Shown: positions 2,972-42,783 of the stretch, piece by piece
How the letters are laid out: every line of letters begins with the position of its first letter
Numbering within the stretch: position 1 is the stretch's first letter
Source: Haloferacalesvirus Serpecor1
Taxonomy: Duplodnaviria > Heunggongvirae > Uroviricota > Caudoviricetes > Thumleimavirales > Hafunaviridae
Length of the DNA stretch: 64,000 nt
Direction: 5' to 3' (one strand)
IMG/VR virus record: IMGVR_UViG_2974801466_000001
Location: 10,197 to 74,196 of that record
Notes under the pieces: generated by a model
What the model was told of the DNA's origin: nothing
What the model saw: only the letters and a program-made list of their open reading frames with translations
Database searches by the model: none
Made by a program: the position numbers and the translations under genes

Positions 2972-2972
2972 C

Positions 2973-3738: not shown

Positions 3739-3746
3739 ATCTATCT

Positions 3747-5039: not shown

Positions 5040-5067
5040 AGACTCAAAACACTTCTTTTAATTCATC

Positions 5068-5610: not shown

Positions 5611-5665
5611 ACCCACCTCTCGCTGAATCGACTTTCGACTAAATTTATTTACACTTAAACCTATT

Positions 5666-6136
5666 ATGACTGAAGAAACCGACAACGACAGTAACGACGT
5701 TAACATCTCGAAGCTCCGCGAACTGGCCCTCCGGGGGAAGAACTACCGGGAGGAGTTTGAGACTACCTACCTCGGTGAGAGTCTGACTCTCTACCTCAAG
5801 CCGCTGACGGACATTGAGTTCCTGCCGATTGCGGCGTTCCTCGAAGAAAAGCTGGACATGGACGCCGACGAAGCGAAGGAACGCATCGAGGAGGAGCGAG
5901 AAGCCGGTGACGACGACTCGATTGACATGGCGAACTTCGACGCGGAGTTCGTCGGCATTATGCAGGAGGCCGCCGCGAAGGGCGTTGACACCACGCAGGG
6001 TGACGCCGAGGGTCTGGACGAGAACTTGGTTCTCGAAACTATCCGCGACCTGATTGGTGGGAAGTCCATCGAGATTGCTGAGAAGGTGTTGGACATTTCC
6101 AGCAACGCGGAGGACGCCAAAAAGTTTCGCAGATAG
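5666..6136 (+). CDS. Tail assembly chaperone-like protein (G-like), 156 aa acidic
   Basis: Small acidic ORF immediately upstream of the TMP. Its 3' end overlaps an alternative-frame ORF that runs up to the TMP start. Confidence 0.35.
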   Translation: MTEETDNDSNDVNISKLRELALRGKNYREEFETTYLGESLTLYLKPLTDIEFLPIAAFLEEKLDMDADEAKERIEEEREAGDDDSIDMANFDAEFVGIMQEAAAKGVDTTQGDAEGLDENLVLETIRDLIGGKSIEIAEKVLDISSNAEDAKKFRR

Positions 6137-6449
6137 CGGTGCGGCAGGCGTAATCTTCGGCCTGAAGTCTGAGATTGGTGCTGGATTCGTCGGTTCAGAC
6201 GACCAGCTTGAAATGACTCCGTTCCAGCGACAGGTGTTCGAGGCCGAGAAGGTACGGGAACACCGCGAGCAGGAACAGCAGATGGAAGCCGCCCGTGCCG
6301 GTAAGATGGGCGGTGGCGGTCGAACACCTAACGCGGCTCACCAAAGCGTTTCTTCGGCTGGTAACACTCGCTCTCGGAGCGAGACGGTACGGTATGTGAA
6401 CGACAGTTCCGACGAGAATCCAGAGGCGAACGTCACGTTCGTTGACTAA
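6054..6449 (+). CDS. Overlapping +1-frame ORF; candidate frameshift extension of the tail chaperone (GT-like)
   Basis: ORF in the +1 frame relative to 5666..6136. It overlaps 6054-6136 and ends 2 nt before the TMP start, the classic G/GT arrangement. Confidence 0.3.
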   Translation: MVGSPSRLLRRCWTFPATRRTPKSFADSGAAGVIFGLKSEIGAGFVGSDDQLEMTPFQRQVFEAEKVREHREQEQQMEAARAGKMGGGGRTPNAAHQSVSSAGNTRSRSETVRYVNDSSDENPEANVTFVD

Positions 6450-6451
6450 TC

Positions 6452-8272
6452 ATGTCTGTTACTATTGACCTCGACATTCGTGCCGAGGACGTAATTGCGA
6501 CTCTTGAAGGCGTTGAGGAACAACTCGACCGCCTCGAAAACGACTTCGACTTTTCGCTCGATGGCGACTTCAAGGCGCAGTTGGACGACATTATGGATTC
6601 GCTCGACAAGCTATCCGGTTCGCTTGTTGACGACCTCGATGAAGTTGCGTCCCGGCTCGAAGACCTCGAAATTGACGTTGGCGCTCCCGTAGGAGGGGGC
6701 GACTCTGGTGGCGACACCGGAAGTGATAGCGGAGATAAATACTTTGCCGACAGCTCCGGTTCCACGATGGGCTGGCGGGAGGTTTTCAACCGGATTGCCG
6801 ATTCCGACTACTCCGGCACGACGATGGACGACCTCTCGGACACGACCTTCGACTTCGAGGTTGACCGAGAGCGGAACATCAAGAAAATCAACGACGCGCT
6901 TTCTGAGACTCTTGGTGACGGTCTTCTCTCTAACTTTGTAACCAGTAACTCCCGGTGGGGTGGCGTTACCTCCGACCGGAGTAAGGGCGTTGCTACGCTT
7001 CTGGACGCGAAGGACATTAGCCCGGACAGTCTCCGCCTCGGTCGGATGGGGAAAATGACCAAGCGCGTTAGCGGTCGTGTCTCGAACCTTCGAGGCATTA
7101 TCCGTAGCGCGATTCCCTCTATGGCGAAGTGGTGGCAACTGATTGCTCTCGCGCTTCCGGCCCTGATTGCGTTCGCTGTTCAGGCGTCCGGGGTTGCTAC
7201 CTCGATGCTCGCTATGGCCGGTGCTGGTGCGGCGTTCATCGGCCTCGGTTTGGTCGGACACGGTAACAGCATGGCCGAGTCGTGGCGGAACGCTCAGCAA
7301 CAGCTCTCCCAACTCAAGGAAGACCTGTACGAGACGTTCCTCCCCTCGATGCAGACCTTCGCTCCGATTCAGGCCGCCTTCTTCGATATGCTCCCGAAGG
7401 AGCTTGGGAAGGTCAACGACGCTCTGAAATCGCTCGCTGGTAGCAGTTACCAGTACGCCCTGTTCGACGGGCTTCGGGGTGTCACGAATTGGGTCGCTGA
7501 ACTGATTTACTCGATGCGCGACCTCGATTCGATTGCCACGCAGGTCACGATGCGGTTCGGTGGCATCATCGGGACGAAGATTATCGAGTTCTTCGAGTGG
7601 GCGACGGTTGAAGCCTACCGGAATCAGGAGAGCCTGATTAAGCTCGGTGGCGTGATTATGTCCGTCATTGAGATTATCTACAATCTCTCCAAGATTTTCG
7701 CTCACCTCGTCCTGATGCTCAGTCCGGTGCTGGATGCGGTGGTTTGGCTGACTCAGGTTCTCAGCCAGCCGATGTACCGGGCGCTCGCGTCGGTTATCGT
7801 GCTGTTCGGAATCATCGGCGTAGTGCTGGCGAAGACGGTCGTGACTATTGCGAAGGTTCGCGTTGCGTTCACGATTCTCGGAATCACGGGTTCGGGCGCG
7901 ATGGCCGGACTCGCTTCGAGCGCGGTCGGTGCGATGGCGACCGTGAAGGCGGCAGTCATGTCGGCGGTCGCGTCTCTCGGTCTTCTCCAAGCGGCGCTAA
8001 TCGCCACGGGAATTGGCGCTCTGGTGGTCGGTGCTGGCTACCTCGCGTACAGCGTGATGAAGCCGGACGGCCCGCCGTCTACGGGAAGCGGCCCGAGTTA
8101 CGGGGGTACTGGTGCTGGTCAGACGGTTATCAACGAGGGAGATACCTACAACTTCAACGTTGACGGTTCGACTGACGGCCCGACGACTCAGAAGATGCTG
8201 GATGTTGCGAAGCTGAACAATTCGACCGATTCCACTCGGTCACTCTCTCTTAACGACGGCGAAGGAACCTAA
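6452..8272 (+). CDS. Tail tape measure protein, 606 aa
   Basis: N-terminal coiled-coil-like acidic heptads, long central Ala/Gly/Leu-rich hydrophobic segments (LIALALPALIAFAVQASGVATSMLAMAGAGAAFIGLGLVGHG) and a Gly-rich C-terminus. Position after the chaperone pair. Confidence 0.55.
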   Translation: MSVTIDLDIRAEDVIATLEGVEEQLDRLENDFDFSLDGDFKAQLDDIMDSLDKLSGSLVDDLDEVASRLEDLEIDVGAPVGGGDSGGDTGSDSGDKYFADSSGSTMGWREVFNRIADSDYSGTTMDDLSDTTFDFEVDRERNIKKINDALSETLGDGLLSNFVTSNSRWGGVTSDRSKGVATLLDAKDISPDSLRLGRMGKMTKRVSGRVSNLRGIIRSAIPSMAKWWQLIALALPALIAFAVQASGVATSMLAMAGAGAAFIGLGLVGHGNSMAESWRNAQQQLSQLKEDLYETFLPSMQTFAPIQAAFFDMLPKELGKVNDALKSLAGSSYQYALFDGLRGVTNWVAELIYSMRDLDSIATQVTMRFGGIIGTKIIEFFEWATVEAYRNQESLIKLGGVIMSVIEIIYNLSKIFAHLVLMLSPVLDAVVWLTQVLSQPMYRALASVIVLFGIIGVVLAKTVVTIAKVRVAFTILGITGSGAMAGLASSAVGAMATVKAAVMSAVASLGLLQAALIATGIGALVVGAGYLAYSVMKPDGPPSTGSGPSYGGTGAGQTVINEGDTYNFNVDGSTDGPTTQKMLDVAKLNNSTDSTRSLSLNDGEGT

Positions 8273-8806: not shown

Positions 8807-10245
8807 ATTGCGAAGACTCTGAGATTTCCTTTGCGTTCATCGGGGAGGATAATGACCTCAGCAATCCGATTGTTGAGATTCGTCCTCTCACGATGGACTT
8901 CCAGCGGAATATGGGTCAGTTCGATTTCGTTCGCTCGAAGTTCTCTCAGGGTGTGGCCGAACACATCGAGGGGGCTGTCCTCGATGATGATGGAATCCTG
9001 AATCGCCCACGTCCTGTCGTTATCAAGCTCGGCGGGAAGCCGATTCACCGGATGCTCTACCTCCCCGACGCGGTTATGTTCGGGGTGAATAACGTCCACA
9101 TCGAGCTTCACGACGTACAGAAATACCTCGATAGGGGAGTTGTGGACTACCAGCGGCAGAACGTCCGACTCGAAGAAGCGTACCGCTACGTGTTCAACCA
9201 GCGGGACACCTCGGACGGGGAGATGTTCTCCGGCATCCGGTTCTCTGTTCCAGAATCGGCTTTCGAGGAACTAAACAGTCGGTACACACCCGGCTTGGGG
9301 CCGATTACGCTGAAGAACCAGCGGTCTTGGGACAAGATTCGGCAGGCTCGGCGCGACCAAACGGGTGCGTTTGAGCCGAAGCAGGAGGAAGACGTTATCC
9401 GCGACCTCGAAGCTGAGAACGTTCACAACATCATCGACGGGCACTACGCCCTCGACTTCAAGCAGGTGTCTCCGTGGGAGGCTATCCTCGAAATGAACGA
9501 GAAGTTCGGTGTCACGACGTGGGTGGCCCCGGACGGATACCTGTGGGTCGGTAGCCGGGAAGCGACCGGCATCGACCACGTTACGGCTCCCGACGACCCC
9601 CGAGTGTGGAAGCTAATCGACTACAACATTACTCCACCGCGCGACCCGATTATGAAGGTCGTCGTCCGGGGAAAGCAGGTTCACGACCCGAAAGATAGTT
9701 TTGCTGATAACGTCGGGGAGTTCGTGAATCAGAGCCGGAACATCTTGGACTTCCGTATGGAGGGAGTCGCAGAACGTCCCGACCTGAACTACGGTCGGGT
9801 GATTACTCCCGAAGACCTCGATGCGGCGGCTGACGGTCTAAAGGAAATCGCCAAGCGGCGGCTAATCAACGAGCAGAAGAAGCAATGGAGCGGGAACATC
9901 GAGCTTCTTCCGTCCCACTCCGGCGACTCGTGGACTGATATTCGAGACGTTCAGATTGGTGACGGAATCGTAACTATCCCGCCCGAGAACGGCGGTGGGG
10001 AGTGCCGGAACAACATTCAGTTGGAGAAGTTCACGATTACCGGCGTTCACCACACGCTGACGGAAAATGGAGAATGGACGCTCCGCCTCGATGTGGTTCC
10101 GATTGCGGATGGAAGTCTCCACCCGGACAACGTGAAGACCTACAACCGCTACTTCGACCCGACGAGCAAGGAGTACGTGGACGAGGAAACGTATGAAGCT
10201 CGCAAGGAGGCAGACAAAGGCTTCCAACTGAACGACCTAATCTGA
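8803..10245 (+). CDS. Tail/baseplate protein, 480 aa (position of P2 gpD or Mu gpN DNA-circulation-like protein)
   Basis: Synteny after the TMP. Start codon overlaps the stop of the previous gene. Confidence 0.3.
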   Translation: MNCEDSEISFAFIGEDNDLSNPIVEIRPLTMDFQRNMGQFDFVRSKFSQGVAEHIEGAVLDDDGILNRPRPVVIKLGGKPIHRMLYLPDAVMFGVNNVHIELHDVQKYLDRGVVDYQRQNVRLEEAYRYVFNQRDTSDGEMFSGIRFSVPESAFEELNSRYTPGLGPITLKNQRSWDKIRQARRDQTGAFEPKQEEDVIRDLEAENVHNIIDGHYALDFKQVSPWEAILEMNEKFGVTTWVAPDGYLWVGSREATGIDHVTAPDDPRVWKLIDYNITPPRDPIMKVVVRGKQVHDPKDSFADNVGEFVNQSRNILDFRMEGVAERPDLNYGRVITPEDLDAAADGLKEIAKRRLINEQKKQWSGNIELLPSHSGDSWTDIRDVQIGDGIVTIPPENGGGECRNNIQLEKFTITGVHHTLTENGEWTLRLDVVPIADGSLHPDNVKTYNRYFDPTSKEYVDEETYEARKEADKGFQLNDLI

Positions 10246-10246
10246 T

Positions 10247-12130
10247 ATGATTCACGGTATTGTTACAAACACGACGACCAGCTCTGGTATTCTCATTGCG
10301 GATGTTCAGGTGGCACGCGCGGGGGTAACTTACAAAGAAGTGCCAGTTGCTCATCTCCACCCCGGCCACCTTCAGTCGATTACTGAGGGTTCGCGGGTTC
10401 TGATGGAGCGTACAGAGGACAATCTGTGGGTCATTATCGGCGTTCTCGAAACGAACGAGGAGCTTCTGCCCGACGACGTAAGTGGGTACGAGCAGGTTAT
10501 GGCGTTCGATGATGGAACGAAGCTTGAGTTCTCGAAGAACGAGGACGGTAGCTACGATACCCGCCTTACGGCTTCAGACGACCTAACTATCGAGTCGAAC
10601 GGGTGGGGTATGCGTACTGGCCGTGACGGGCATATCCAATTTAAGTCCAACTCGGTGGACTTTGACACGAGCGGGACTACCTTCGAGGATAGCTCGGACG
10701 GCGGTTCGACCTCGGACGGTTCGACTTCTGATGGGGATTCCGGCGGCTCTACCTCAGAGCCTACAAGCATCGAGGAGTCTGACCTCGCCTTCGATACGGC
10801 TACTCAGGCAGAACTTGATGCTCATGCGGGCGACGAAAGCGCACACCACGCCCGGTACACGGACTCGGAAGCTGTCTCGGCTATCGAGTCGGTTGCTGAG
10901 AAACTAAACGCGAGCATTTCCGGTGACGCGGATACGGTCGATGGGATGCACGCCGAAGACCTCGCTGGTGGTGGTGTTTCGAGCCACGGTGAGCTTACCG
11001 GCGTTTCAACCGACGACCACCACGCCCGATACACGGATTCGGAAGCGTTAGAGGCTCTTGAGTCGTTGGCTCGCTCTCTCGATGTGGACATTTCCGGTGA
11101 CGCTGACACAGTTGATGGGAAACACGCCGAGGACTTCGCAGAAGCGAATCACTCTCACAGCGAGTACGCTCCAACAGACCACAACCACGACGGTCGGTAC
11201 GCCGACCGCCAGCACCTACACTTCTCCTTCGATGGGTCGAACGGTTGGTATAGAATCGCCTCGAATGGCCCCGTGACGGATGGAGAACGGGGTGGCGATA
11301 GAGCATCCGGTCTATTTACCGTCTATGATACGGATGGTGGCGACCACCGGCACGTCACGTTCTACGCGAGCGTAGCGTACAACAAGAATCCGACTATCAC
11401 CGTTCTCAATTCTACCGTGTACGGTGGTGGGATTGTAGACCGTCTTCGTCTTGTTCACGGGAATACCTACGAAGGGACTGCCTTAGAGGTCTATCTCGGT
11501 AACGATGCCACCGGGATTGATGTCTATATGTGGCAAAATGTGTGGAGTGACGGATGGACGTTGGAAAATGGACAGGCAGGAAGCGTCCCTTCTGGATTCA
11601 ACACTACTAATTTCGACTTAGTTGGTACGAGCGCGTCCTTTGGGGTTGCGACCAATGGAAACGACAATTCGTTCGTTGTTGACCACTCAGGCCGCACCAC
11701 GGCGAATATCGACCAAATCTTCGTGGCAAACGGTTCAGGGTCTAACCTCAACAGTTCCTCTTGGAATACTATCTCGTGGAACAACACGGAGATTGAGGAC
11801 TCTGCGTACAATTTCAACGGCAGTACCGTCACGATTCAGGAAGACGGGACTTACGAAATTGTCGCGGAAGTAGATTTCAGCAGTACGGGCGCGACTCGGC
11901 AAAATCCGAACATAGGTATCCAAAAGAACGGCGATTGGGCAGGTGTTCTCGGTCGCTCCGGCTACATGAGGGACAGCGAAGGCCACAACAGTTCGAGTGC
12001 CCACGCCCGAGCGGTGATTACTGCGTCCTCTGGTGACACTATTCGCGCACAGGCGAGGGGGGATGGTGATACGAGCGGTAGTATCTCTCCCGCGAGAGGG
12101 CAGTTCTACATCAAGAAGCTCAACCGATGA
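10247..12130 (+). CDS. Baseplate central spike (gpV-like N-terminal OB domain) fused to fibre-like repeat region, 627 aa
   Basis: N-terminus MIHGIVTNT..ILIADVQVARAGVTYKEVPV resembles gpV/gp5 N-terminal domains. Internal duplicated segment DxHHARYTDSEAxxAxESxAxxLxxxISGDADTVDG(M/K)HAEDxA occurs twice. Central region is Ser/Asp/Gly-rich. Confidence 0.4.
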   Translation: MIHGIVTNTTTSSGILIADVQVARAGVTYKEVPVAHLHPGHLQSITEGSRVLMERTEDNLWVIIGVLETNEELLPDDVSGYEQVMAFDDGTKLEFSKNEDGSYDTRLTASDDLTIESNGWGMRTGRDGHIQFKSNSVDFDTSGTTFEDSSDGGSTSDGSTSDGDSGGSTSEPTSIEESDLAFDTATQAELDAHAGDESAHHARYTDSEAVSAIESVAEKLNASISGDADTVDGMHAEDLAGGGVSSHGELTGVSTDDHHARYTDSEALEALESLARSLDVDISGDADTVDGKHAEDFAEANHSHSEYAPTDHNHDGRYADRQHLHFSFDGSNGWYRIASNGPVTDGERGGDRASGLFTVYDTDGGDHRHVTFYASVAYNKNPTITVLNSTVYGGGIVDRLRLVHGNTYEGTALEVYLGNDATGIDVYMWQNVWSDGWTLENGQAGSVPSGFNTTNFDLVGTSASFGVATNGNDNSFVVDHSGRTTANIDQIFVANGSGSNLNSSSWNTISWNNTEIEDSAYNFNGSTVTIQEDGTYEIVAEVDFSSTGATRQNPNIGIQKNGDWAGVLGRSGYMRDSEGHNSSSAHARAVITASSGDTIRAQARGDGDTSGSISPARGQFYIKKLNR

Positions 12131-12498
12131 CTATTGAGATTGCTCTACACGGCTCTGCTTGCGAAGCTGACGGCCACCCGTCGAAGTGCCAATCCACCGT
12201 CTCCGGCGAGACGAAGGACGGTGACGGCGATACCTCCGTGACGATTAACGGAGTGCCTGTCACCGACCACAACGACTCGATGCACTTTCCCTCTCACGCT
12301 CACGCTTACGTTGAAACCGACGACGGCGGCTACTGCGACGACTTCTACTCTCACGACCTCGTTCCCGACCAGTCTCACTCGTTGACGGTGAACGGTCAGC
12401 CCGTCGTTCGGGAAGGTGACTCTACGAGTGACCCCGGAGCGGGAACGGCTACGGTTCTGGATAGCGGCGGGAACAGCGCGGTAACGCACACGGAATAG
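12127..12498 (+). CDS. Small His/Cys-rich protein after the spike (PAAR-like tip candidate)
   Basis: 123 aa with HGSACEADGH, SHAHAY and YCDDFYSHD metal-ligand-like clusters; position after the gpV-like gene. Confidence 0.25.
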   Translation: MTIEIALHGSACEADGHPSKCQSTVSGETKDGDGDTSVTINGVPVTDHNDSMHFPSHAHAYVETDDGGYCDDFYSHDLVPDQSHSLTVNGQPVVREGDSTSDPGAGTATVLDSGGNSAVTHTE

Positions 12499-12562
12499 CT
12501 CACATCATATATAAACCCTTTACCATTAATAGTATTAGAGAACGCCCTTCTCCTCCACTCCT

Positions 12563-12889
12563 ATGCTTGATTTAGCCCTAAATAGTGACTTCTCTGTTTT
12601 TCTGGACGAAAGCGGCGACCTTGCTTCGGTAAGTGGGCGCGAGGAGTTCGAGCAGGCGGTTGTTATTCTCTTGACCGAGTTGATGCGGGACGCCGCTATC
12701 GGTGAATTTGACGAGACGACCATCAAACAGAAGCTCAAGCTCGAAGCGTCCCGAGTCGCGCGAAAACACGATTATCTGTCCAGCGTGGACGGCATCGACG
12801 TTTCTCCGCACGACAGCGACCCGAACAAGTACGTCCTACGTATCAACTACAAATCAAATCACGTTTTCGAGGAAGCGATTAGCGAATGA
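12563..12889 (+). CDS. Baseplate wedge protein gpW/gp25-like, 108 aa
   Basis: N-terminus MLDLALNSDFSVFLDESGDLASVSGREEFEQAVVILLTELMRD matches the gpW/gp25 pattern (D-L-A-L..G-D-L..V.G.E...Q). Followed by a J-like gene. Confidence 0.45.
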   Translation: MLDLALNSDFSVFLDESGDLASVSGREEFEQAVVILLTELMRDAAIGEFDETTIKQKLKLEASRVARKHDYLSSVDGIDVSPHDSDPNKYVLRINYKSNHVFEEAISE

Positions 12890-14121
12890 CAATTAACGAA
12901 GACGGCTCTTTTGACGGCGATTCTGAGGAGGAAATCCTCGATGCGATGATTGCCGACGCGAAGCAGTTTTGGTCGGAGGACATTAAGGAATCTGACCTCG
13001 CTGTAATCCGGCAGTTCTACCGGCCTATCGCTCGGCGTCTTGCTCAGGCACAGAACGATATTGGACTTGTCCTTAGTTCGACTCAGATTGACAACGCAGA
13101 GGGTTCTGCCCTCGGACTACTGACGGCACTCATCGGAGTGACGAGACAGCCAGCGGCCCGCGCTCGCGGCGAGGTGACGTTCTATCGGGAAGACGTAGCC
13201 GAGATGGACTACCACGTTCCTGCGGGGACTGAGGTTCAGACTCGAAGCGACCCCCCGATTGAATACGTCACGACCGAGGGGACGGTTATCGCAGAGGGCA
13301 CTACATCAACCACGGCTCCGATAGTCGCGGTTGAACCCGGCGCTAACGCGAACGTCGGGGCCAATTCGATTACGGCTCTCCCGGTTCCGCTGGCAGGAAT
13401 CAATCGTGTCACGAACGAGCAGGAAACGACGGGCGGCGAGAACCGAGAGTCTGACGAAAATCTCCGTGAGCGAGCGAAGGAGGAGCTGGCCGAGGGTTCG
13501 AGCGCAACCGGCCCGGCTCTTGTGAGCGCGGTTCGGGGAGTGGAGGGAGTGTCCTCGGTTAGCATCCTCATCAACGACAAGAAGGAACACAACGGTCGGG
13601 GCCACAACCTTCCGGCTAACTCCGGCGAGCTTGTCGTGACGGGCGGCGAGGACGCGGATATTGCTCAGGCGATTTTGGAAACGAAGGGGATGGATTCGAC
13701 CCTCGTGGCGGGGGTGAACGGCGTTGCCGTGACGGGAACGCTCGCTGAACTTCCGAACGGTCAGACCCATCCGATTGACTTCTCGCGGGCGAACCCCGTG
13801 ACCATCTACATCGAGGCAGATGTTCAGGTCGATTCTACCTACGAGGACGACACCGAGGTTCTGAACAACATCATCAAATACGTCGGCGGAAAGGACATGG
13901 ACGGGTTCGAGAAGGACGGCGAGCTTGGCGTGACGGACGACGTTCTCCACGGCGAAATCGAGTACCGGATTCGAGAGATTCCCGGCGTCTACGACGTTAC
14001 GAGTCTCAAGATTGGTCGCACCGACCCGCCGACCGAGACGACGAACATCAGCATCGGCGGGATGGAAGAAGCACACACCGACGCTCAGACCGACATTACG
14101 CTCAACGTGAGCGAGGTGTAG
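12886..14121 (+). CDS. Baseplate J-like protein, 411 aa
   Basis: W-J-I order, size, overlapping start with the W-like gene. Confidence 0.4.
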   Translation: MTINEDGSFDGDSEEEILDAMIADAKQFWSEDIKESDLAVIRQFYRPIARRLAQAQNDIGLVLSSTQIDNAEGSALGLLTALIGVTRQPAARARGEVTFYREDVAEMDYHVPAGTEVQTRSDPPIEYVTTEGTVIAEGTTSTTAPIVAVEPGANANVGANSITALPVPLAGINRVTNEQETTGGENRESDENLRERAKEELAEGSSATGPALVSAVRGVEGVSSVSILINDKKEHNGRGHNLPANSGELVVTGGEDADIAQAILETKGMDSTLVAGVNGVAVTGTLAELPNGQTHPIDFSRANPVTIYIEADVQVDSTYEDDTEVLNNIIKYVGGKDMDGFEKDGELGVTDDVLHGEIEYRIREIPGVYDVTSLKIGRTDPPTETTNISIGGMEEAHTDAQTDITLNVSEV

Positions 14122-14125
14122 TCGC

Positions 14126-14776
14126 ATGGCGACGATTCACGAGGAGGTTGAAAAACTGGTCAACTCCCTCCCGTCGTACTACGCTGACGACGACGAGAGT
14201 GGGAATTGGAAACTGCTCGATGCGGTTGGTCGCCAAGTCGTAGACCTCGATGGAGACATTGAGACGCTGGACGACGAGACGACCGTTCAGGAAGCCCTCG
14301 ACGTTGATTCGCTTGAGGAACTTGCTGGTATGGTTCAACTCCGGCGGCGCTCCGGTGAAGGCCGCGACCACTATCGAGCGCGGATTATCGCGGAGTACCA
14401 GCTCAACACGAGTGAGGGAACTATCGAGGACGCTTTCAACTCGATGGCGACCATCCTCTCGTGCGAGGTTGAAGACCTCTGGTTTCAGGATTGGCGGTTC
14501 CTGTTCGGTGAAATCCACGACCGAACGGTATGCTTCCTCCTACCATACGACGACGTACAAAACCTCGACCTTTCGGGAGAGGAAATCTCGAAAATCGTCC
14601 AGAAGCTCGCGCCGGTCGGGACTACGGTAAAGTCTCAGTATAACGGCTCTCTCCGGTACAAGTCCAAGGAGGACTACGAGGAGACGAACTGGAACGGTTA
14701 CGATGGCGGCTATGATGCTCTTGACTCCGAGGGCAACCCGACCGGAGAGGGCGGGACAAAAGGAGGACTTATCTAA
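14126..14776 (+). CDS. Baseplate gpI-like protein, 216 aa
   Basis: Synteny following the J-like gene. Confidence 0.3.
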   Translation: MATIHEEVEKLVNSLPSYYADDDESGNWKLLDAVGRQVVDLDGDIETLDDETTVQEALDVDSLEELAGMVQLRRRSGEGRDHYRARIIAEYQLNTSEGTIEDAFNSMATILSCEVEDLWFQDWRFLFGEIHDRTVCFLLPYDDVQNLDLSGEEISKIVQKLAPVGTTVKSQYNGSLRYKSKEDYEETNWNGYDGGYDALDSEGNPTGEGGTKGGLI

Positions 14777-14779
14777 AAT

Positions 14780-16477
14780 ATGGCGTACACTTCTAAACTC
14801 AAGGAATGGGGAGCCGTCGCTGAGGAGCGGTCGGAGTTCCCCGATGGGTACAGGTACACGAAGGAAAACCCGCCCGTCACGCACTACGACAACTTCCTCG
14901 TTCACAATCTCATCGAGGACGTTCGACACCTCGTTGACCTTACGAACGCAATCGACCCGGACAATGATGGGCAGGTCGCTGACGCCGAGACGATTCAGGG
15001 GAAGTCCCCGTCTCAACTTGGTGGCTTCAAGTTCATTCAGTCGGATAACCCCGACGAGCTGACAAGCGGGACGACTTGGTTCAAGGACTCGAACCACCTC
15101 CTGTTCGTTGCTGACGGGGAGCAGTACGATATTTTCCCCGAGACGGGCTACGACGAGACGAGCGACTTCAGCGGCACGGAAGGCTTCTCGCTGACGCACG
15201 AAACTCCGGCAAGGACTCGCCTCGATGCGGGGAGTCTCAAACTCATCAACGAGCAGGTCGTCGCTGACTTCAACTCCGGTATCTCTCCCGACCACGGTGC
15301 GTGGACGTGGAGCGACACCTCGGGTATCAGTCACGAATCGACGAACGGACGAGCCGAGATTACGTCAACCGGAGACGCAACCACGCCTCAGCTTCAGCGG
15401 GACGTTCCCGTGGCTCAGGACATTGAGTTCTCGTTCGAGGTGGCCGAGGACACGTTGAACATCAACGACGAGTCTATCATCCGGCTGGACGACGAGAACG
15501 GGAATCGTGAGCTGGAAATCCAGTTCAACGACGGTGCGGGGAACGTCTCTCTGAGCGACGGTACGGAACTTCTCCCGTCGTGGACTGCCGGACAGACCTA
15601 CGTGTTCGAGGTTGACCCGGACTTCGACGCTGGAACCCTCGATGTGGTAATCAACGGTCAGACCATCATCGCGGGTCGCCCGATGGACGCTACCGCTATC
15701 TCGAACATCTGGTTCGGCTCGAAGACGATGGACTCCGGTTCTGTCCGTAGCGTGTTCGTGGACGATGTTCACACCGGAGCGCGGGAGTACGGCGAGGTCG
15801 TCGTGTCCTGCCCGGAACCGGATTCACGCATCGAGGGGTGGGACTTGCTCCGGTTCGACCGGACGCTGGCCGGAGAGAGCGTCGTTGTGGACGTGGAGGA
15901 CGAGACGGGTACTACGCTCATCTCTGACATAGACTCGAACGAAGACCTCTCGGCGGCTGTTGACGCGGCGACGAACCCACAGATTCGCGTGAAGTTCACT
16001 CGGGAGGATACGTCGAACAACCCGTCGTTCGATTCGCTGTACCGGCGGTGGGTTCTCCGCCCCGGTGACAACGGCGTGAACATCCGAGCCTTCGGCTCTG
16101 ACGGCGCGGATAACGTTCACGAAATCAACTTCACCGCGCCGGTCACGAAGGACGAGGATGGTCGCGTGACGGTTGACCTCGACCCGAGGTACGTCAACGA
16201 GACGGGCGACTCGATGAGTGGCGACCTCGATGTGAACGCGAGCGTCCAAGTTGGTGATGACCTCGTTCTGGACGATGAAGACGGAGAGCAGTTCGTAGTG
16301 GTCGGGAAGGATTCTGACACGCTCACGATTGCGGAAAAGGGCGGCTCTGCCTTCGAGCAGATGGATGTGAACGCTCGGCAGTTCACGAAGCAGGGACACG
16401 AAGTTTGGCACGAAGGGAATCGGGCCTATCAGGTTCGCAAAAACAACTTCATTAGCACGAAACTTTCGCGGAGATAA
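14780..16477 (+). CDS. Tail fibre protein, 565 aa
   Basis: Follows the baseplate genes; acidic beta-rich repeats and a C-terminal divergent domain. Confidence 0.4.
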   Translation: MAYTSKLKEWGAVAEERSEFPDGYRYTKENPPVTHYDNFLVHNLIEDVRHLVDLTNAIDPDNDGQVADAETIQGKSPSQLGGFKFIQSDNPDELTSGTTWFKDSNHLLFVADGEQYDIFPETGYDETSDFSGTEGFSLTHETPARTRLDAGSLKLINEQVVADFNSGISPDHGAWTWSDTSGISHESTNGRAEITSTGDATTPQLQRDVPVAQDIEFSFEVAEDTLNINDESIIRLDDENGNRELEIQFNDGAGNVSLSDGTELLPSWTAGQTYVFEVDPDFDAGTLDVVINGQTIIAGRPMDATAISNIWFGSKTMDSGSVRSVFVDDVHTGAREYGEVVVSCPEPDSRIEGWDLLRFDRTLAGESVVVDVEDETGTTLISDIDSNEDLSAAVDAATNPQIRVKFTREDTSNNPSFDSLYRRWVLRPGDNGVNIRAFGSDGADNVHEINFTAPVTKDEDGRVTVDLDPRYVNETGDSMSGDLDVNASVQVGDDLVLDDEDGEQFVVVGKDSDTLTIAEKGGSAFEQMDVNARQFTKQGHEVWHEGNRAYQVRKNNFISTKLSRR

Positions 16478-22425: not shown

Positions 22426-22638
22426 ACACCGTGGGTATATAAAACGGGGGGTGTCAGTCAGGGTTTTCTTTCAGCCAGCCCGATTGTGGAAACTTGGTGT
22501 TACAAGTGCGGCATACGGGGCTATACCCCCTATTTATTTATAAGTAGGATTGTTAGTAGGAGGTACAGAGGCACGCAGAAGGGGTTGTTCCCGGCAAGGT
22601 TAGCCGCTTTCAGGGCCGTAGGCCCTCTCGGTAAAGCG

Positions 22639-22685
22639 CGTCCTTGGTAAGGACGAGAGCGGGGGTTCAAATCCCCCCTCAGGCT
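22639..22685 (+). other. 3' portion of a tRNA-Thr(GGT)-like gene (anticodon stem-loop to acceptor 3' strand); candidate attP core
   Basis: cgtcc-ttGGTaa-ggacg anticodon arm, ggggg-ttcaaat-ccccc T arm, ctcaggc acceptor 3' strand. No matching 5' acceptor or D arm upstream. Lies directly upstream of the integrase. Confidence 0.45.
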
Positions 22686-22901
22686 TTCAGCCTTCACGGG
22701 GCTTCTCACCCCATTTTGCGTGCTTCTTGGACACGAAACAATGCGAACCAAGAAAGCACTCTACCCACAAACGGCCACCCCCGCGCCGTCTTGCGATTCC
22801 GTGAACTGTCAGGACACTATAACTCTGAACCCCACGCGAGCGCGTATCCTCAACGGTGGTGTCCCGGCTTGAACCGCAACGACCCACTCGACAGCGTGGA
22901 A

Positions 22902-24065
22902 ATGAGCGCGGCATCCGAGGATATACCACCTGCGCCCGAACCCATCGAGTTTGGCTTCCCCCTCGTCAGCAAACGGTCGCGCGAAGACCTCGAAGCGTTC
23001 GGCTTCAACATGGTAGACGACTACCACGACTTCAAAGAAGAACTACTGACGTGGCTCGGCAACTACGGGAAAAACCCCGAAAAGTACGAAGGACTCGCCC
23101 GCACCACGCTTGAGAGTACCCACTACAAGCTCGAAACAGTCTTCCGCTGGCTATGGAAGTACGAAGACCAATACACCACCAACTTCACGCCCGAACACGC
23201 GGATAAGTTCATCTCGCTGTTGAATCAAGCCGACTCGATGATTGACAGCACCGTACTTCACCACGCGAAGGACATACGCCGGTACTTCCGCTACTGTAAC
23301 CACACGAAGGGCAAGAACTACGATTGGGAACCCGACGTGGAACTAAGCCAATCGAACGGAGGAGACGAGCGAGACTACCTCCGACGCGCCGCGTTCGAGC
23401 CGCTGTATCAAGCCGCGCTCAACCACTCGTCGGTCAAAAGCTACTACTCCTGTTCACCAGAGGAACGCACCGAGCTGAAACGATACATCTCTCAGCTAAA
23501 GAAAATCCCAATGGAAAACATCGGGGCCGAGGAGTTCAAGAAAGCAAACTCGTGGAAGTACCCGTCCATGATAGCCGTGACCTTAGACACAGGACTCCGA
23601 CCCATCGAGGTCGGACGCGCCAAGGTGTCGTGGGTGAACCTCCAAGATAACGAACTGAACATCCCGAAGGACGAGTCCACGAAGAACGAGGGACATTGGA
23701 ACTGCTCGATTCAGGGAACAACCGCAAACGCACTCGAACGGTGGCTGAAAGAGCGAAAAGCGATAGACAAGTACGACGGTCGGGACGAGCTATGGCTCAC
23801 GCAGAAGGCCCGCCCCTACAACTCCGACTCGTGTAACGGCCTGCTTGACCGAATCATCGAGTCTGGGAACGTCCCGATTCCCGAACACCGGGAGGACGAA
23901 GTATCGTGGTACAGCATCCGCCACGGAGTCGCTACGTATTGGGCGAACCACGTCGGCCCCCACCACGCGAAAGAACAGCTCCGGCACAAGTCGGTCACGA
24001 CGACGATGAAATACCTCCACTCAGACCCCGACACCCGAGGGAGCGCGGTCGAACAAATCTGGTAG
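22902..24065 (+). CDS. int: Tyrosine recombinase / integrase (probable start MSAASED at 22902; the ORF-table start 22644 overlaps the tRNA fragment)
   Basis: Catalytic residues: R in GLRPIEVGRAK, R-H in YSIRHGVATYWANH, and RHKSVTTTMKYLH with the Tyr nucleophile. Confidence 0.85.
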   Translation: MSAASEDIPPAPEPIEFGFPLVSKRSREDLEAFGFNMVDDYHDFKEELLTWLGNYGKNPEKYEGLARTTLESTHYKLETVFRWLWKYEDQYTTNFTPEHADKFISLLNQADSMIDSTVLHHAKDIRRYFRYCNHTKGKNYDWEPDVELSQSNGGDERDYLRRAAFEPLYQAALNHSSVKSYYSCSPEERTELKRYISQLKKIPMENIGAEEFKKANSWKYPSMIAVTLDTGLRPIEVGRAKVSWVNLQDNELNIPKDESTKNEGHWNCSIQGTTANALERWLKERKAIDKYDGRDELWLTQKARPYNSDSCNGLLDRIIESGNVPIPEHREDEVSWYSIRHGVATYWANHVGPHHAKEQLRHKSVTTTMKYLHSDPDTRGSAVEQIW

Positions 24066-24067
24066 CG

Positions 24068-24550
24068 TTACGACGCAACCTCCGCGACCGACTTCAGCCC
24101 GCGCTCGTTCAAACGGTACTCCTTCTTTCGACCGTCCGTGTCGTGGGGTCGCTTCTCCATCACGCCCCTCTCCGAAAGCTCCCATAGGATTTGGCTCACG
24201 TCGTCCGGGTCTATCTCGGAGTCTTCATCCAACTCCGCTTTGATTTCCGTCGTCGTGTGCCACTCGTCGCCGTTGTTCTCGTAGAGGAACGTGGCGAGCT
24301 TCCGCGTCCGTGACCCTTCCTCGAAGGTGACTAAATCCATCCCACCCCCATCCGTCTCTCCATTCACCTCAATTTCCTCTCCGGTGATGTATTCCGTGAG
24401 GTCGATTGGGGACTCCGCCTCGATTGTCACCCTGATGTTCTCGATGGATTCGTTGAATCCGACTTCCTCCATGAACGTATTGAACGCATCGAGGGATTGG
24501 TCGCCCGACAGTTCCAGAGTCATAACTCCGTCTGATTGACTTGACGACAT
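24068..24550 (-). CDS. Acidic protein with C-terminal winged-helix DNA-binding domain (candidate lysogeny or transcription regulator), 160 aa
   Basis: C-terminus WHTTTEIKAELDE...ILWELSERGVMEKRPHDTDGRKKEYRLNERG resembles a wHTH. Convergent with the integrase. Confidence 0.4.
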   Translation of the reverse strand: MSSSQSDGVMTLELSGDQSLDAFNTFMEEVGFNESIENIRVTIEAESPIDLTEYITGEEIEVNGETDGGGMDLVTFEEGSRTRKLATFLYENNGDEWHTTTEIKAELDEDSEIDPDDVSQILWELSERGVMEKRPHDTDGRKKEYRLNERGLKSVAEVAS

Positions 24551-24961: not shown

Positions 24962-26326
24962 TCACTTCTTGAAGTTCATCACGGGCTTGAGGCGGTCAAC
25001 GACCCGCGCCGTGGGTTCCAGATTCTCCTCGATGAGTTCCATCGGCTTGTAGGCTTCCGGCACTTCGTCGCCGGGGACGACCGCCGAGTACGTCCCGTTG
25101 TCGTACATCCGCTTGCGGGTGGCGTCGGCGTCGAACTGCTCGTGCGCCCATCCACGGGAACCGAGTCGGCCCGCACCGTGGGGAGCCGAGTAGTTGTAGT
25201 CGGGGTTCCCGCGTCCCTGACAGAGCAGAGTACCGTCCTCCATGTTCATCGGGATGGCGAACAGCTCACCGTCCTGAGCGCGGGTGGAGCCTTTCCGAAT
25301 CACCATATCCTCGAAGTCCACGTAGTTGTGCGGGGAGTCGAGGAACTTGTTGATAGACGCATCGAGGGTTTCGGCCACCTCCTGAATCATCAGCAGGCGG
25401 TTGAAGCTCGCGTAAGTCTGAGCGAGCATCATATCGTAGTAGTACCCGTAGGCTTCGCGGCCTTCGAGGTAATCGAGGTCTTTGTTCCGGTCGGCGTCCG
25501 GGGAGTAGGACTCAATCTCGGAGCCGATACGTTCGATTTCCTCGCCGTCGTTGTAGAGGCGAATCTTCTCCCAATCCGGGGAGCCGTCGCGGTTCGTGTA
25601 GTGCTTCAACCGCTCGCCCATCTCGCCCCACTTCACGTCGGCGTCACGGTGTTCGGTCGCCTTCGCCTGCCAGTACGCCGCGACCTTCTGACCGAGGTTC
25701 CGCGACCCGGAGTGAACGACTACCCACAGGTCGCCGGACAGCTCGGACTCAGCAATCTCGATGAAGTGATTACCGGAACCGAGCGTGCCGAGGGAACGGA
25801 GCGCGTATCTCTTGCTGATTCCGACGCGCTTGCACATCTTCTCGAAGTAGTCCGGGCGGAACATCCCCTCGTCCCGGTTCTCGTAGTCGAAGTCCATCGC
25901 GTCGTAGAAGTAGAGTAGCTTCTCGTTCACCTTCCACCACGGGAACGACCACTCAAGTTCGACCGGCGGCTCCTTGTGAGCGCGACCCGTCCCCATCGGA
26001 ATCCGGTCGCGTACCTCCTTGTTCACCTCACGGAAGTCGTCTATATCGGATGGGTGGTCGGCGGTCGATACATCGAGGCGGGCCGCCGTCATACCGCACC
26101 CAATGTCGCCCCCGACCGTCTTCGGAATCACGCGGTCGGTCAGCGGCATCGAGAACCCGACGATACACGCAGGCCCGAGGCCCCCGTGACAGTCCGGCAT
26201 GAACTTCACCGGGTTCTGGAACGCCTCGTGGTCAACCATCTCCTGTATCTCGTCACGGAGTCCGTCTTCCACTTCTTCTTCTGGTAGGTGTACCTCTGCT
26301 GTCGTACTGTTTCCTTCTACAATCAT
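24962..26326 (-). CDS. rtcB: RtcB-family RNA 3'-phosphate ligase, 454 aa
   Basis: NYSAPHGAGRLGSRGWA, HNYVDFED, and metal-ligand Cys/His (CHGGLGPACIVGF, GNHFIE). Confidence 0.85.
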   Translation of the reverse strand: MIVEGNSTTAEVHLPEEEVEDGLRDEIQEMVDHEAFQNPVKFMPDCHGGLGPACIVGFSMPLTDRVIPKTVGGDIGCGMTAARLDVSTADHPSDIDDFREVNKEVRDRIPMGTGRAHKEPPVELEWSFPWWKVNEKLLYFYDAMDFDYENRDEGMFRPDYFEKMCKRVGISKRYALRSLGTLGSGNHFIEIAESELSGDLWVVVHSGSRNLGQKVAAYWQAKATEHRDADVKWGEMGERLKHYTNRDGSPDWEKIRLYNDGEEIERIGSEIESYSPDADRNKDLDYLEGREAYGYYYDMMLAQTYASFNRLLMIQEVAETLDASINKFLDSPHNYVDFEDMVIRKGSTRAQDGELFAIPMNMEDGTLLCQGRGNPDYNYSAPHGAGRLGSRGWAHEQFDADATRKRMYDNGTYSAVVPGDEVPEAYKPMELIEENLEPTARVVDRLKPVMNFKK

Positions 26327-32818: not shown

Positions 32819-33733
32819 TTAGAGATACGCCGGGGACTCGCCCCGGTATTCCTCCTTCCACTCAGGGTAGGAGAGCGTGTCATCGCGGTAGAAATATGCC
32901 CGACCGGGGAACGGATGTTCGTCGTCGGGATGTAGACAAAGCTCGTCACGAGAAGGCGGTCGGGCCTTCCGTTCGTCTTCGAGAAGTGGCGGGGTTTGTG
33001 GGTGTTCGACCTCCCGCCGTCGTCGGTTCAGGAACGCGGAGTCAACGCGGTCGTCCTTGTTCCAAGAGAGTAGAACGTTCTCCATCGACCGCTCGATGCG
33101 GTCGTAGTAGTTGTGGCCGCTCTCACCCCACTTATCGCCCTGCCACACACTCCCGAATTGAGCCGCCTTCAACGGTGAGGCGGTGTCAACGGAGTGGACG
33201 GGGACGTAGTGGGATAACTCGAACTGTCGGTGGGGGCTTCCGCCGAGGATATGAACGCTTCGGCAGTTGCGGTACTCCCATACAGGCCACGGTACACCAC
33301 CAAAGCGGTCTTGAGCGGGGAGTCCGACACGGAAGCGAGAGGGAACGCGGTCGGGCTTGACGCCCTTCGGAACCACGATAACCACCTCTGCGTGGCGACC
33401 GAGACGGTCAGCCTTAGCAAGAGTAGAATCGAGGGAAGACTCGTCTGTAATATCAGGCGCAACAGCATATTTCGGCTGTTCGCGTTTCACCACATCGAGG
33501 TGGGCTTCCCACTTCTGGTCGAACGGAATATCATCTTGAAGGAACGGCCAATCGACGAACTCCACCGGAATTTCCCTCGGTGGTCGGGCTTTCGTACTTT
33601 CCATCCCCACGAGCGAGCCACTACGGTAGGCCGCTCGGGGCATATCTTCTCCGCCGCAGGACGTTACTATAACATCAATTCGGTCGGGTGAGCTGGTGCT
33701 GTCGCTGGTCGATGCGTACTCGGTGAGACTCAT
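32819..33733 (-). CDS. Hypothetical protein, 304 aa (conserved-looking core VIVVPKGVKPDRVP...ILGGSPHRQ; function unknown)
   Basis: Long ORF with non-repetitive sequence, co-oriented within the replication module. Confidence 0.4.
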   Translation of the reverse strand: MSLTEYASTSDSTSSPDRIDVIVTSCGGEDMPRAAYRSGSLVGMESTKARPPREIPVEFVDWPFLQDDIPFDQKWEAHLDVVKREQPKYAVAPDITDESSLDSTLAKADRLGRHAEVVIVVPKGVKPDRVPSRFRVGLPAQDRFGGVPWPVWEYRNCRSVHILGGSPHRQFELSHYVPVHSVDTASPLKAAQFGSVWQGDKWGESGHNYYDRIERSMENVLLSWNKDDRVDSAFLNRRRREVEHPQTPPLLEDERKARPPSRDELCLHPDDEHPFPGRAYFYRDDTLSYPEWKEEYRGESPAYL

Positions 33734-42552: not shown

Positions 42553-42783
42553 TTGTTGTAGTTGGGTTTCTCTGGTTCTGGTTATCGGTCGGTACGAAGC
42601 CAGCTACGGCATAGGTATTTGCGCCGTAGAAAGTCTGGACGGGCGGAATCGAACCGCCCTTGGGAGGTTTACAGCCTCCGCGTTCGCCTTGAACACGTCC
42701 AGAAATGGCCTATGATTGGGGGTGTCCACACCGCGTGAACGGGAGTGGCTACAAAGGTACGGCCAGCACCTCGCGTAGCCAAG

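Follow-up and report, generated by a model that had tools for sequence, protein, structure and literature searches.

The 57-nt segment at positions 22629-22685 of the Serpecor1 DNA analyzed here (a stretch of 64,000 nt, hereafter the window) is very probably the core of the attP site of this virus, with the gene at 22869-24065 encoding its tyrosine integrase and with integration proceeding by the mechanism proposed below; we hold this explanation as a whole with high confidence. That the tRNA-Thr fragment beside the integrase is an attP for insertion into a host tRNA gene has already been annotated and published for the same virus. The window is 100% identical over the query to Halorubrum virus Serpecor1 (MN901521.1), whose GenBank annotation labels 22629-22685 “tRNA-Thr ... 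probable attP of virus,” and a partial tRNA-Thr(GGT) with an integrase has been described as the attP module of all HF1-group viruses, with two proviruses as support (PMC7230728, PMC8707807); Hdep-prov1 and ELPmg-prov1 are the published proviruses of the group (PMC7230728). Thus, the preliminary description, which took the 3' part of a tRNA-Thr(GGT) beside a tyrosine integrase for an attP site, agrees with the annotation and both papers, and this identification in itself adds nothing to the record. A further 39 records match the query at 81-89% nucleotide identity, and genome-level identity, the synteny of HF1-group myoviruses, and the taxonomy line of the record place the virus in the genus Haloferacalesvirus (family Hafunaviridae). 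The window comprises positions 10197-74196 of 74196 of a linear virion genome and is therefore not an integrated form, as had been surmised. The features relevant to the argument are the following, in coordinates of the window.

22537-22543, plus strand: TATA-like box (TTTATAA) of the promoter of attP, the small ORF, and int, predicted by homology with HF2
22567-22587, plus strand: left arm (21 nt, P arm) of an inverted repeat; candidate arm-type site for Int, start of the int leader RNA, or both
22606-22613, plus strand: first copy of GCTTTCAG, not conserved in relatives
22615-22628, plus strand: degenerate, non-functional remnant, placed by the tRNA model at the 5' acceptor strand and the beginning of the D arm (model alignment, fold)
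22629-22685, plus strand: attP core, 57 nt, the 3' four-fifths of a haloarchaeal tRNA-Thr(GGU) from D loop to discriminator (tRNA match, conservation, annotation)
22639-22655, plus strand: anticodon arm CGTCC-TTGGTAA-GGACG, with the anticodon GGT at 22646-22648
22639-22643 and 22651-22655, plus strand: inverted anticodon-stem strands around the loop
22644-22650, plus strand: anticodon loop TTGGTAA, candidate strand-exchange (overlap) region and core-type sites
22656-22660, plus strand: variable loop
22659, plus strand: G in the variable loop, the sole mismatch to every matching cellular tRNA (tRNA comparison)
22661-22677, plus strand: T arm GGGGG-TTCAAAT-CCCCC
22678-22684, plus strand: acceptor 3' strand CTCAGGC
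22683-22690, plus strand: second copy of GCTTTCAG, lying across the boundary between the 3' end of the tRNA segment and the P' arm
22685, plus strand: discriminator T
22707-22727, plus strand: right arm (21 nt, P' arm) of the inverted repeat, overlapping the annotated GTG of the small ORF at 22720
22741-22872, plus strand: small conserved ORF, 43 aa from ATG 22741 (annotated as HrrSp1_210, 50 aa from GTG 22720)
22869-24065, plus strand: tyrosine-type site-specific integrase, 398 aa (Pfam, catalytic residues)
24068-24550, minus strand: winged-helix (PadR-like) protein gene, convergent with int (synteny)

The anticodon arm, the T arm, and the 7-nt acceptor 3' strand lie just where they had been placed on first inspection. 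Of the limits then given for the fragment (22639-22685), the 3' end holds; the 5' end does not, since identity with the host tRNA-Thr(GGU) starts 10 nt further 5', at 22629. Identity from this point means that the attP segment includes some of the D loop as well as the D-stem 3' strand, which amends the otherwise essentially correct remark that it lacks a 5' acceptor strand and a D arm. Matching host genes are readily found: the core is identical at 56/57 nt to the tRNA-Thr(GGU) of seven Halorubrum genomes, Halobellus ordinarius, and a Haloferacaceae metagenome-assembled genome (MAG), so the expectation of a predictable host target in Halorubrum and its relatives is upheld. All nine of these matches have C at the equivalent of 22659, and no exact match to the G-22659 variant of Serpecor1 was found among the scanned species-representative genomes. 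The variant is common to Serpecor1 and HRTV-8, -14, -18, and -26, whereas HF1 and HF2 have C; in other respects nothing essential sets the Serpecor1 attP apart from the HF1-group module, of which it is an instance.

That the locus instead encodes a functional viral tRNA-Thr, either aberrant or interrupted by a non-canonical intron in the D loop, strikes us as exceedingly improbable. The Rfam tRNA model does align end to end with 22615-22685, at 31.9 bits just exceeding the gathering score of 29, and several GenBank records of relatives annotate full- or intron-length features (71, 83, 89, or 132 nt). In addition, a D stem around a 24-nt insertion could form between GCTT (22606-22609) and AAGC (22634-22637), and removal of 22610-22628 could restore the D arm. 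However, the true tRNA-Asn of the window scores 75.8 bits with the same model, ARAGORN finds no tRNA at the attP locus, and the model alignment has non-standard pairs at 2/7 acceptor and 2/4 D-stem positions and lacks nucleotides 8-9. By inspection, no 5' strand pairs fully with CTCAGGC, the best candidates reaching 5/7 and 4/7 positions, the latter being the alternative strand at 22598-22604. The minimum-energy fold of the 71-nt sequence contains no cloverleaf, whereas the host tRNA folds as one, and the 14 nt 5' of the core (22615-22628) differ freely between isolates, while the core does not. Thus, the complete cloverleaf with a 7-bp acceptor stem, D arm, and normal finder score of a functional tRNA gene is not seen here, and the locus, judged by strand pairing, does not conform to an intron-containing archaeal tRNA either; on the grounds of the ARAGORN result, the broken model stems, the fold, and inspection, we reject a complete or D-loop-intron tRNA, as the authors of the genome had likewise concluded. 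The absence of a functional complete tRNA is what the reading of the segment as attP had predicted.

A flanking 8-nt direct repeat had also been reported, at 22604-22611 and 22684-22691. The repeat exists, at 22606-22613 and 22683-22690, but carries no apparent significance: GCTTTCAG occurs 3 times in the window against an expected 1.37, a count reached in 16/100 shuffles, and its first copy reads CCTTTCAG in HRTV-8 and HF2 and is disrupted in HRTV-5. We therefore reject it as a meaningful flanking repeat.

The integrase is intact and matches the Pfam Phage_integrase family (PF00589) with E = 4e-15. It has 418 homologues at E <= 1e-20, and the residues R244, K272, Y348 (at the His-I position), R351, H373, and Y382 are invariant across 13 homologues, down to 39% identity, marking it as a tyrosine recombinase with its catalytic residues in place. 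Its likely start is the TTG at 22869, as against 22644 in the mechanically called ORF that also ends at 24065. Overlapping this start by 4 nt is the small ORF, whose peptide, with the motif TPAPSCDxxxCQDTIT, is conserved in viruses and cellular islands; it is degenerate in integrase-less mini-elements (see below) and has an in-frame stop in one reading of the Hrr. trapanicum copy. It is possible that this peptide is an Int cofactor. Gene order is constant across HF1-group viruses, in the form of a 66-aa ORF, attP, the small ORF, int, and the winged-helix gene, the last of which is syntenic in all virus relatives and missing from the cellular islands.

The temperate lifestyle ascribed to the virus from its attP stands as a capacity of the virus group and falls as a description of observed behavior: in the literature, Serpecor1, whose stocks are no longer viable, formed clear plaques on its isolation host, Hrr. 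coriense, and no provirus is known for this virus itself. The temperance of Serpecor1 is thus a genetic capacity, not an observed behavior. These clear plaques could also suggest an inactive relic, i.e., that an ancestor captured a host tRNA fragment and that the strictly lytic Serpecor1 now leaves int and attP in disuse. The same may be said of the G-22659 variant with its lack of an exact cellular match and of HF1 and HF2, for which lytic behavior is reported and no provirus forms of these isolates have been detected. Against this, the 57-nt core is 98-100% conserved in most of about 40 isolate records, which span several continents and three host genera, while the surrounding 2.6 kb are 81-89% identical. 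In the HRTV-24 group and VOLN27B, which have a different T arm, both stem strands have changed with pairing preserved. The catalytic residues of Int are all kept, and integrated relatives exist. Taken together, these observations make disuse very unlikely and favor a working attP. For Hrr. coriense, the literature on the virus group reports no matching tRNA. A 40-nt scan of species-representative genomes returned no Hrr. coriense contig, and a search for its tRNA-Thr locus by way of the conserved neighboring DUF7114 gene identified no Hrr. coriense protein or contig; the attB status of this host hence rests on the published statement and its absence from the 40-nt scan.

The attP reading anticipates integrated copies with a full tRNA at one end and a partial 3' copy at the other, and the search for these was positive in related elements. 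Intact tRNAs at attL and partial duplicates at attR are seen across five of them (L007, L004, L016, L028, and L034), not for Serpecor1 itself. On the attL side, the IMG/VR contig L028 combines a full tRNA with the P' arm, an Int 81% identical to that of Serpecor1, and 9 kb of Serpecor1 synteny; on the attR side, L034 runs from a 66-aa-ORF homologue through a virus-type P arm into a partial tRNA with a different T arm and from there into non-viral DNA. In genomes, a full-length int lies beside tRNA-Thr. The 8-kb locus on contig NZ_JAVQKJ010000009.1 (Halobellus ordinarius ZY16) includes part of a second Int, 70% identical over that stretch. Of 10 metagenome matches to the junction of P arm and core, nine have the HF1-type P arm, and none has the GGGGG T arm of Serpecor1 or a viral P' arm following. 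A scan of IMG/VR with a 30-nt core pattern gave 6 matches, all single-copy (five isolates and one 9.6-kb contig); two-copy proviruses in IMG/VR were accordingly rejected, as no contig among these matches has both provirus ends.

The junctions of related elements also bear on the point of exchange. In Hrr. trapanicum and the MAG, attL and attR of one element have different, internally complementary T arms, which places the exchange point 5' of the T arm. In Hrr. trapanicum, the two junctions differ on both sides of the equivalent of 22640-22660, and the identity blocks of 3'-type and 5'-type junctions overlap solely in CTTGGTAAGGAC, the equivalent of 22643-22654. By these comparisons, crossover probably takes place in the anticodon loop. 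Since the junction pairs differ in their T arms, identity over the full 57 nt seems unnecessary, and the survey of junctions suggests that the required identity is shorter than assumed, with the anticodon loop as the exchange point. These inferences on crossover and relaxed identity, like those on the inverted repeat that follows, draw on related elements with integrases 67-81% identical to that of Serpecor1.

The 21-nt arms of this inverted repeat are 81% complementary, and it is centered on 22647, the second of the three anticodon bases. Measured against the anticodon, the center of the best inverted repeat has an offset of 0.0 in Serpecor1, HRTV-24, and HCTV-7 and of 0.5 in VOLN27B, and the repeat is retained in 13/13 distinct virus sequences; none was found at 16/21 matches in the reconstituted attP of mini-elements and 5'-type elements. 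We infer that it probably supplies symmetric arm-type contacts for Int. The same region is transcribed in HF2, where attP, the small ORF, and int form one transcription unit. Transcription in HF2 starts at T-40936, 63 nt before the 57-nt core, corresponding to about 22566 in the window, with the TATA-like box about 26 nt upstream of this equivalent. The HF2 promoter is active in the opposite direction too. As a minor reading that does not exclude the first, the repeat might additionally act in RNA: the first ~20 nt of an int transcript from ~22566 would pair with 22707-22727, enclosing the tRNA-like part in a long helix and masking the start of the small ORF, and might so control stability, processing, or translation. 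The HF2 start indeed maps to base 1 of the left arm; for the 165-nt leader, the predicted folding energy is -86.7 kcal/mol (z = -6.15), a stability reached by 0/200 shuffles; and the outer helix is predicted in 13/13 distinct virus sequences, with 97.7% of helix cells paired, variation consisting mostly of A/G opposite U, and one AU-to-GC compensation. Yet, the reverse strand is nearly as foldable (z = -5.49) and folds better than the forward strand in several relatives, 11/17 pairs are invariant with covariation measures not clearly above controls, and the inner part of the fold is not conserved. Moreover, exact symmetry about the anticodon is expected of protein sites in DNA and not of an RNA helix. 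We consider such an RNA-level role unlikely and favor protein contacts with the DNA.

With attP and Int so delimited, the family and the published proviruses suggest that the linear genome would circularize, after which Int would pair attP with the host tRNA-Thr(GGU) gene. Going by the junction comparisons, strands would be exchanged in or beside the anticodon loop at 22644-22650, with the anticodon-stem strands serving as inverted core sites and the repeat at 22567-22587 and 22707-22727 probably providing the symmetric outer contacts. The resulting attL would join the host 5' part to the viral 3' part, giving a chimeric but intact tRNA with the small ORF and int after it, while attR would consist of the viral P arm and a partial tRNA copy with the host 3' part; both junction types occur in relatives. 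As the int promoter lies in the P arm, to judge from the HF2 transcription start, integration would separate it from int. A match to the host would be needed only up to about the variable loop, and the conserved viral T arm and acceptor strand would rebuild a working tRNA. On the isolation host, the virus behaves lytically.

Attachment sites that target tRNA genes are used by the tyrosine integrases of bacterial temperate phages and islands of the lambdoid, P4, and L5 types. As in those systems, Serpecor1 carries the 3' part of the tRNA, so that the tRNA gene is rebuilt at attL; int adjoins the intact tRNA after integration; and the identity block begins 5' of the anticodon stem and continues to the tRNA 3' end. 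Its symmetric anticodon stem-loop, as the probable exchange site, resembles a sublocation class of tRNA integration sites, “anticodon-loop,” that K. P. Williams reportedly distinguished in Nucleic Acids Res. in 2002. In contrast to the bacterial systems, this is an archaeal virus of an archaeal host, its linear virion genome has terminal direct repeats, and the integrase has Tyr in place of the first catalytic His and no sequence match at E <= 0.01 to solved structures, those of recombinases included. The SSV-type integrases of fuselloviruses are likewise tyrosine integrases of archaeal viruses that target a tRNA gene. In these, attP lies inside the int gene, whereas that of Serpecor1 lies ~180 nt upstream of it; int beside tRNA-Thr being full-length in genomes, it remains intact after integration and works like the non-partitioning type.

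The Serpecor1-type Int/attP module may be less demanding and more widely shared than published, a reading that we put forward tentatively and rate as less likely than not. One part of it is that the T-arm differences within junction pairs suggest that ~12-31 nt around the anticodon arm suffice as a match. In that case, lytic growth on Hrr. coriense may not be due to the missing exact 57-nt match, and some “exactly matching” host tRNAs would have arisen as attL when resident elements integrated, that of Hrr. trapanicum DSM 12287 among them. In practical terms, the module predicts which haloarchaea could be lysogenized by these model viruses, lytic as they otherwise look, namely, any with a tRNA-Thr(GGU) sharing the anticodon-arm segment, and it could be turned into a means of integration for the genetics of Halorubrum and Haloferax.

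The other part concerns further occupants of the site. At tRNA-Thr of Hrr. trapanicum and the Haloferacaceae MAG lie mini-elements of 1.3-1.7 kb with HF1-type P and P' arms and no int; those of the MAG form a tandem array. They might be satellite-like, moved in trans by the viral Int, though they may also be mere deletion remnants, in view of the degenerate small ORF that they carry. A parallel is offered by the CIMEs described for streptococcal ICEs, elements that lack an integrase, have att sites on either side, and accrete in tandem with integrative elements. The mini-elements resemble these in keeping both arms without int and, in the MAG, in their tandem arrangement; they differ in being archaeal. 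The site also appears to hold defense islands and a sister integrase lineage whose tRNA portion seems to be the 5' instead of the 3' one, which suggests that the tRNA-Thr locus is a busy integration hot-spot for viruses, defense islands, and remnants. A candidate integrase island 3' of tRNA-Thr in Hrr. sodomense, Hrr. distributum, and Hrr. xinjiangense was rejected, as it is a TnpB (IS605-family) gene followed by host genes; from their sequence, the tRNA-Thr sites of these three species look like unoccupied attB.

The 2.6-kb region around the attP matches Halorubrum virus Serpecor1 (MN901521.1; Hafunaviridae, Haloferacalesvirus) at 100% identity and 39 more halovirus records of the HF1 group at 81-89%; the window and the linear Serpecor1 genome (74,196 bp) share their right end, and record positions convert to window positions by subtracting 10196. 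The record's own annotation includes a tRNA feature at 32825-32881 (window 22629-22685), described there as a tRNAscan prediction with a low score and poor secondary structure and as the "probable attP of virus", followed by a small ORF and a "site-specific integrase Int". A partial tRNA-Thr(GGT) adjoining the integrase is present in all HF1-group viruses, its attP role being evidenced by two proviruses, one in Hrr. depositum (Hdep-prov1) and the other on a contig from a metagenome (ELPmg-prov1), according to Dyall-Smith et al. (2020, PMC7230728). Both the observation and its interpretation are in the database and literature for Serpecor1 itself. Our additions are modest, putative increments: an inferred exchange site, a centred inverted repeat, a relaxed identity requirement, and a crowded tRNA-Thr hot-spot that includes mini-elements and a 5'-type sister lineage.

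The preliminary description of an attP next to an integrase is supported and was essentially right. The anticodon GGT (22646-48) and its arm (22639-22655), the T arm at 22661-22677, and the acceptor 3' strand (22678-84) lie exactly where it put them, with the discriminator at 22685. However, true tRNA identity starts earlier, at 22629, which adds the 3' D-stem strand and a portion of the D loop; the claim that the 5' acceptor and D arm are absent holds in that no functional tRNA was found. The Rfam tRNA model aligns end to end with 22615-22685 at 31.9 bits (gathering score 29; the genuine tRNA-Asn in the window scores 75.8 bits), and in its 5' 14 nt two of seven acceptor and two of four D-stem pairs are non-standard and nucleotides 8-9 are missing. 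ARAGORN finds no tRNA at the site, and on folding these 71 nt form no cloverleaf, whereas the host tRNA does. The 8-nt repeat GCTTTCAG said to flank the fragment exists, but at 22606-13 and 22683-90 rather than where it had been placed; it has three copies in the window against 1.37 expected (three were reached in 16 of 100 shuffles), and the first copy is not kept in relatives.

The 57-nt core is 100% identical in five viruses (7 records), 98.2% identical in 27 more records, some from viruses isolated on Haloarcula and Haloferax, 96.1% over 51 nt in six records, and 92.3% over 52 nt in VOLN27B. The surrounding DNA is just 81-89% identical and diverges directly upstream of 22629. In the HRTV-24 group and VOLN27B both T-stem strands are altered with pairing preserved, and their type of T arm recurs in the full tRNA of an IMG/VR contig (L028). 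The pattern fits selection for rebuilding a working tRNA and speaks against the attP being a dead relic.

The integrase matches Pfam Phage_integrase (E = 4e-15) and has 418 homologues at E <= 1e-20. R244, K272, R351, H373, and Y382 are invariant in the alignment, down to 39% identity, with Y348 where the first catalytic His would be; the R-to-H and H-to-Y spacings are 22 and 9, as in lambda Int. Its start is placed at the TTG at 22869 because the N-terminus is conserved; a comparison of its sequence with solved structures gave no match. The preceding 43-aa ORF (22741-22872) encodes a peptide conserved in viruses and cellular islands alike, with the motif TPAPSCDxxxCQDTIT. Two to three genes downstream of int lie:

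24962-26326, minus strand: RtcB RNA ligase gene, absent from both published proviruses (PMC7230728)
24670-24960, minus strand: HNH endonuclease gene

The 3' 40 nt, with G or C permitted at the variable-loop position, were scanned against a single genome for each species and matched nine contigs, seven from Halorubrum (including trapanicum, sodomense, distributum, xinjiangense, and glutamatedens), one from Halobellus ordinarius, and one from a Haloferacaceae MAG. A matching host tRNA-Thr, as predicted, does exist, seven of the nine matches sitting within this gene:

72 nt, host tRNA-Thr(GGU) gene: GCCTGGGTAGCTTAGCGGTAAAGCGCGTCCTTGGTAAGGACGAGACCGGGGGTTCAAATCCCCCCTCAGGCT

The other two, in Hrr. 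glutamatedens and the MAG, are junction copies with a partial tRNA. Position 22659, G in Serpecor1, is C in all nine contigs, and the match is therefore 56/57. Exact matches to the terminal 57 nt were reported in Hrr. trapanicum and Hrr. sodomense in a 2021 paper on HF2 intergenic repeats (PMC8707807). Hrr. coriense, on which Serpecor1 forms clear plaques according to the literature, has no contig among the scan matches, in agreement with its reported lack of a matching tRNA (PMC8707807). The tRNA-Thr sites of Hrr. sodomense, distributum, and xinjiangense look unoccupied, since a TnpB gene and then host genes come after the tRNA. This TnpB (IS605 OrfB / Cas12f-like) gene is nearly identical across the three loci (L008, L010, and L011, respectively) and lies directly 3' of the tRNA.

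Integrated copies with a duplicated 3' tRNA segment are seen in relatives, for example in Hrr. trapanicum, among elements without an integrase:

NZ_JAGGKE010000007.1 (L007), 4419-5886, minus strand: Hrr. trapanicum DSM 12287 mini-element, ~1.3 kb
JAZKRX010000001.1 (L004), ~4570-7960, minus strand: two tandem mini-elements of the Haloferacaceae MAG

In Hrr. trapanicum, attL is a full tRNA-Thr with the viral-type T arm GGGGG/CCCCC, and attR is a partial tRNA with T arm CCGAG/CTCGG and acceptor strand CCTAGGC behind an HF1-type P arm 77% identical to that of Serpecor1. The strain's "exactly matching" tRNA thus looks, from its junctions, like an integration product. The element codes for a small membrane protein and for a microprotein with a CxxCxGxG zinc finger. 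The MAG has three tRNA-Thr copies (one full, two partial) around its two elements, the first of which carries RHH antitoxin-like and ParE toxin-like genes (Pfam E = 1.4e-3 and 1.1e-4).

Virus-like junctions are also found. L028 starts with a full tRNA-Thr, followed by the same P' arm as in HJTV-2, an Int with 81% identity to that of Serpecor1, and 9 kb in synteny with the Serpecor1 genome. On the metagenome contig L034, a homologue of the 66-aa ORF (69% identity, E = 7e-36) is accompanied by a P arm of virus type; a partial tRNA whose T arm differs comes next, and then non-viral sequence. An HF1-type P arm is present in nine of ten metagenome matches to the P-arm/core junction; none of the ten has the GGGGG T arm of Serpecor1 or a viral P' arm afterwards, and they look like attR junctions or remnants.

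The junctions of these relatives, rather than of Serpecor1, also bear on where strands are exchanged. The two Hrr. trapanicum copies differ at the equivalents of 22638-39 as well as in their T arms, placing exchange within the equivalent of 22640-22660. Identity in other elements (Hrr. glutamatedens, MAG copy 3, Haloferax copy 3) starts at CTTGGTAAGG, and the sole overlap of all junction-type identity blocks is CTTGGTAAGGAC (equivalent to 22643-22654), which holds the anticodon loop. Independently of these junctions, the region's longest inverted repeat (22567-87 / 22707-27, Watson-Crick pairing at 17 of 21 positions) has its centre exactly at 22647; in HRTV-24 and HCTV-7 the centre is at the equivalent base, and in VOLN27B the offset is 0.5. 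We infer that the anticodon loop is the exchange site, with symmetric arm contacts; identity over the full 57 nt does not appear necessary.

There is a minor possibility that the region also acts at the RNA level. In HF2, attP is transcribed together with the gene for the small CxxC protein and int as one unit, which has a single promoter and its start at T-40936 (PMC8707807). This start corresponds to about window position 22566, where the left repeat arm begins; the 165-nt leader has a folding energy of -86.7 kcal/mol (z = -6.15), and the outer helix is found in 13 of 13 distinct virus sequences with 97.7% of cells paired. Yet the reverse strand is almost as stable, 11 of 17 pairs are invariant with just one compensatory change, the inner fold is not conserved, and the exact symmetry about the anticodon favours a role at the DNA level. 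With the promoter in the P arm, integration would leave it at attR, facing host DNA, and int at attL, behind the host tRNA gene. A second, 19-nt inverted repeat (22630-22648 / 22747-22765, 79% complementary), also in HF2, has one arm in the D and anticodon 5' part of the core and the other inside the small ORF.

The closest cellular integrases (72-73% identity; L013, L015, L018-L023), in Halolamina salifodinae, Hrr. ezzemoulense, and several saltern metagenome bins, each lie directly 3' of both a full tRNA-Thr and DUF7114, a conserved host gene. They head islands with defence-type cargo (ApeA-HEPN, UDG, MmeI-type RM, DUF4365, AAA_15/21, PLD) and no virus genes; the integration module is thus common to viruses and non-viral islands. 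A sister integrase lineage, 67-68% identical to Serpecor1's, is found at:

Haloferax (L016/L017), ~9780-15820
Halobellus ordinarius (L005), ~1084-4550

Here the host promoter is followed by no more than the 5' 42-45 nt of tRNA-Thr, cut off behind GGAC or GGACGAG, and then by the integrase gene; the cargo is a SIR2-like gene or a long ORF (>500 aa), with a complete tRNA-Thr and then a second element at its far end. In this lineage, the attP therefore seems to contain the tRNA's 5' part.

Two further RNA features were noted in the window:

42633-42702, minus strand: 70-nt tRNA-Tyr(GTA) according to ARAGORN, below the gathering score of the Rfam tRNA model
53366-53433, minus strand: type II hammerhead ribozyme match, 39.1 bits (gathering score 37)

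The former is probably the partial tRNA-Arg(TCT) with a 28-nt deletion, adjoining the tRNA-Asn, described for Serpecor1 in the genome paper, which also mentions a conserved hammerhead ribozyme in HF1-group viruses.
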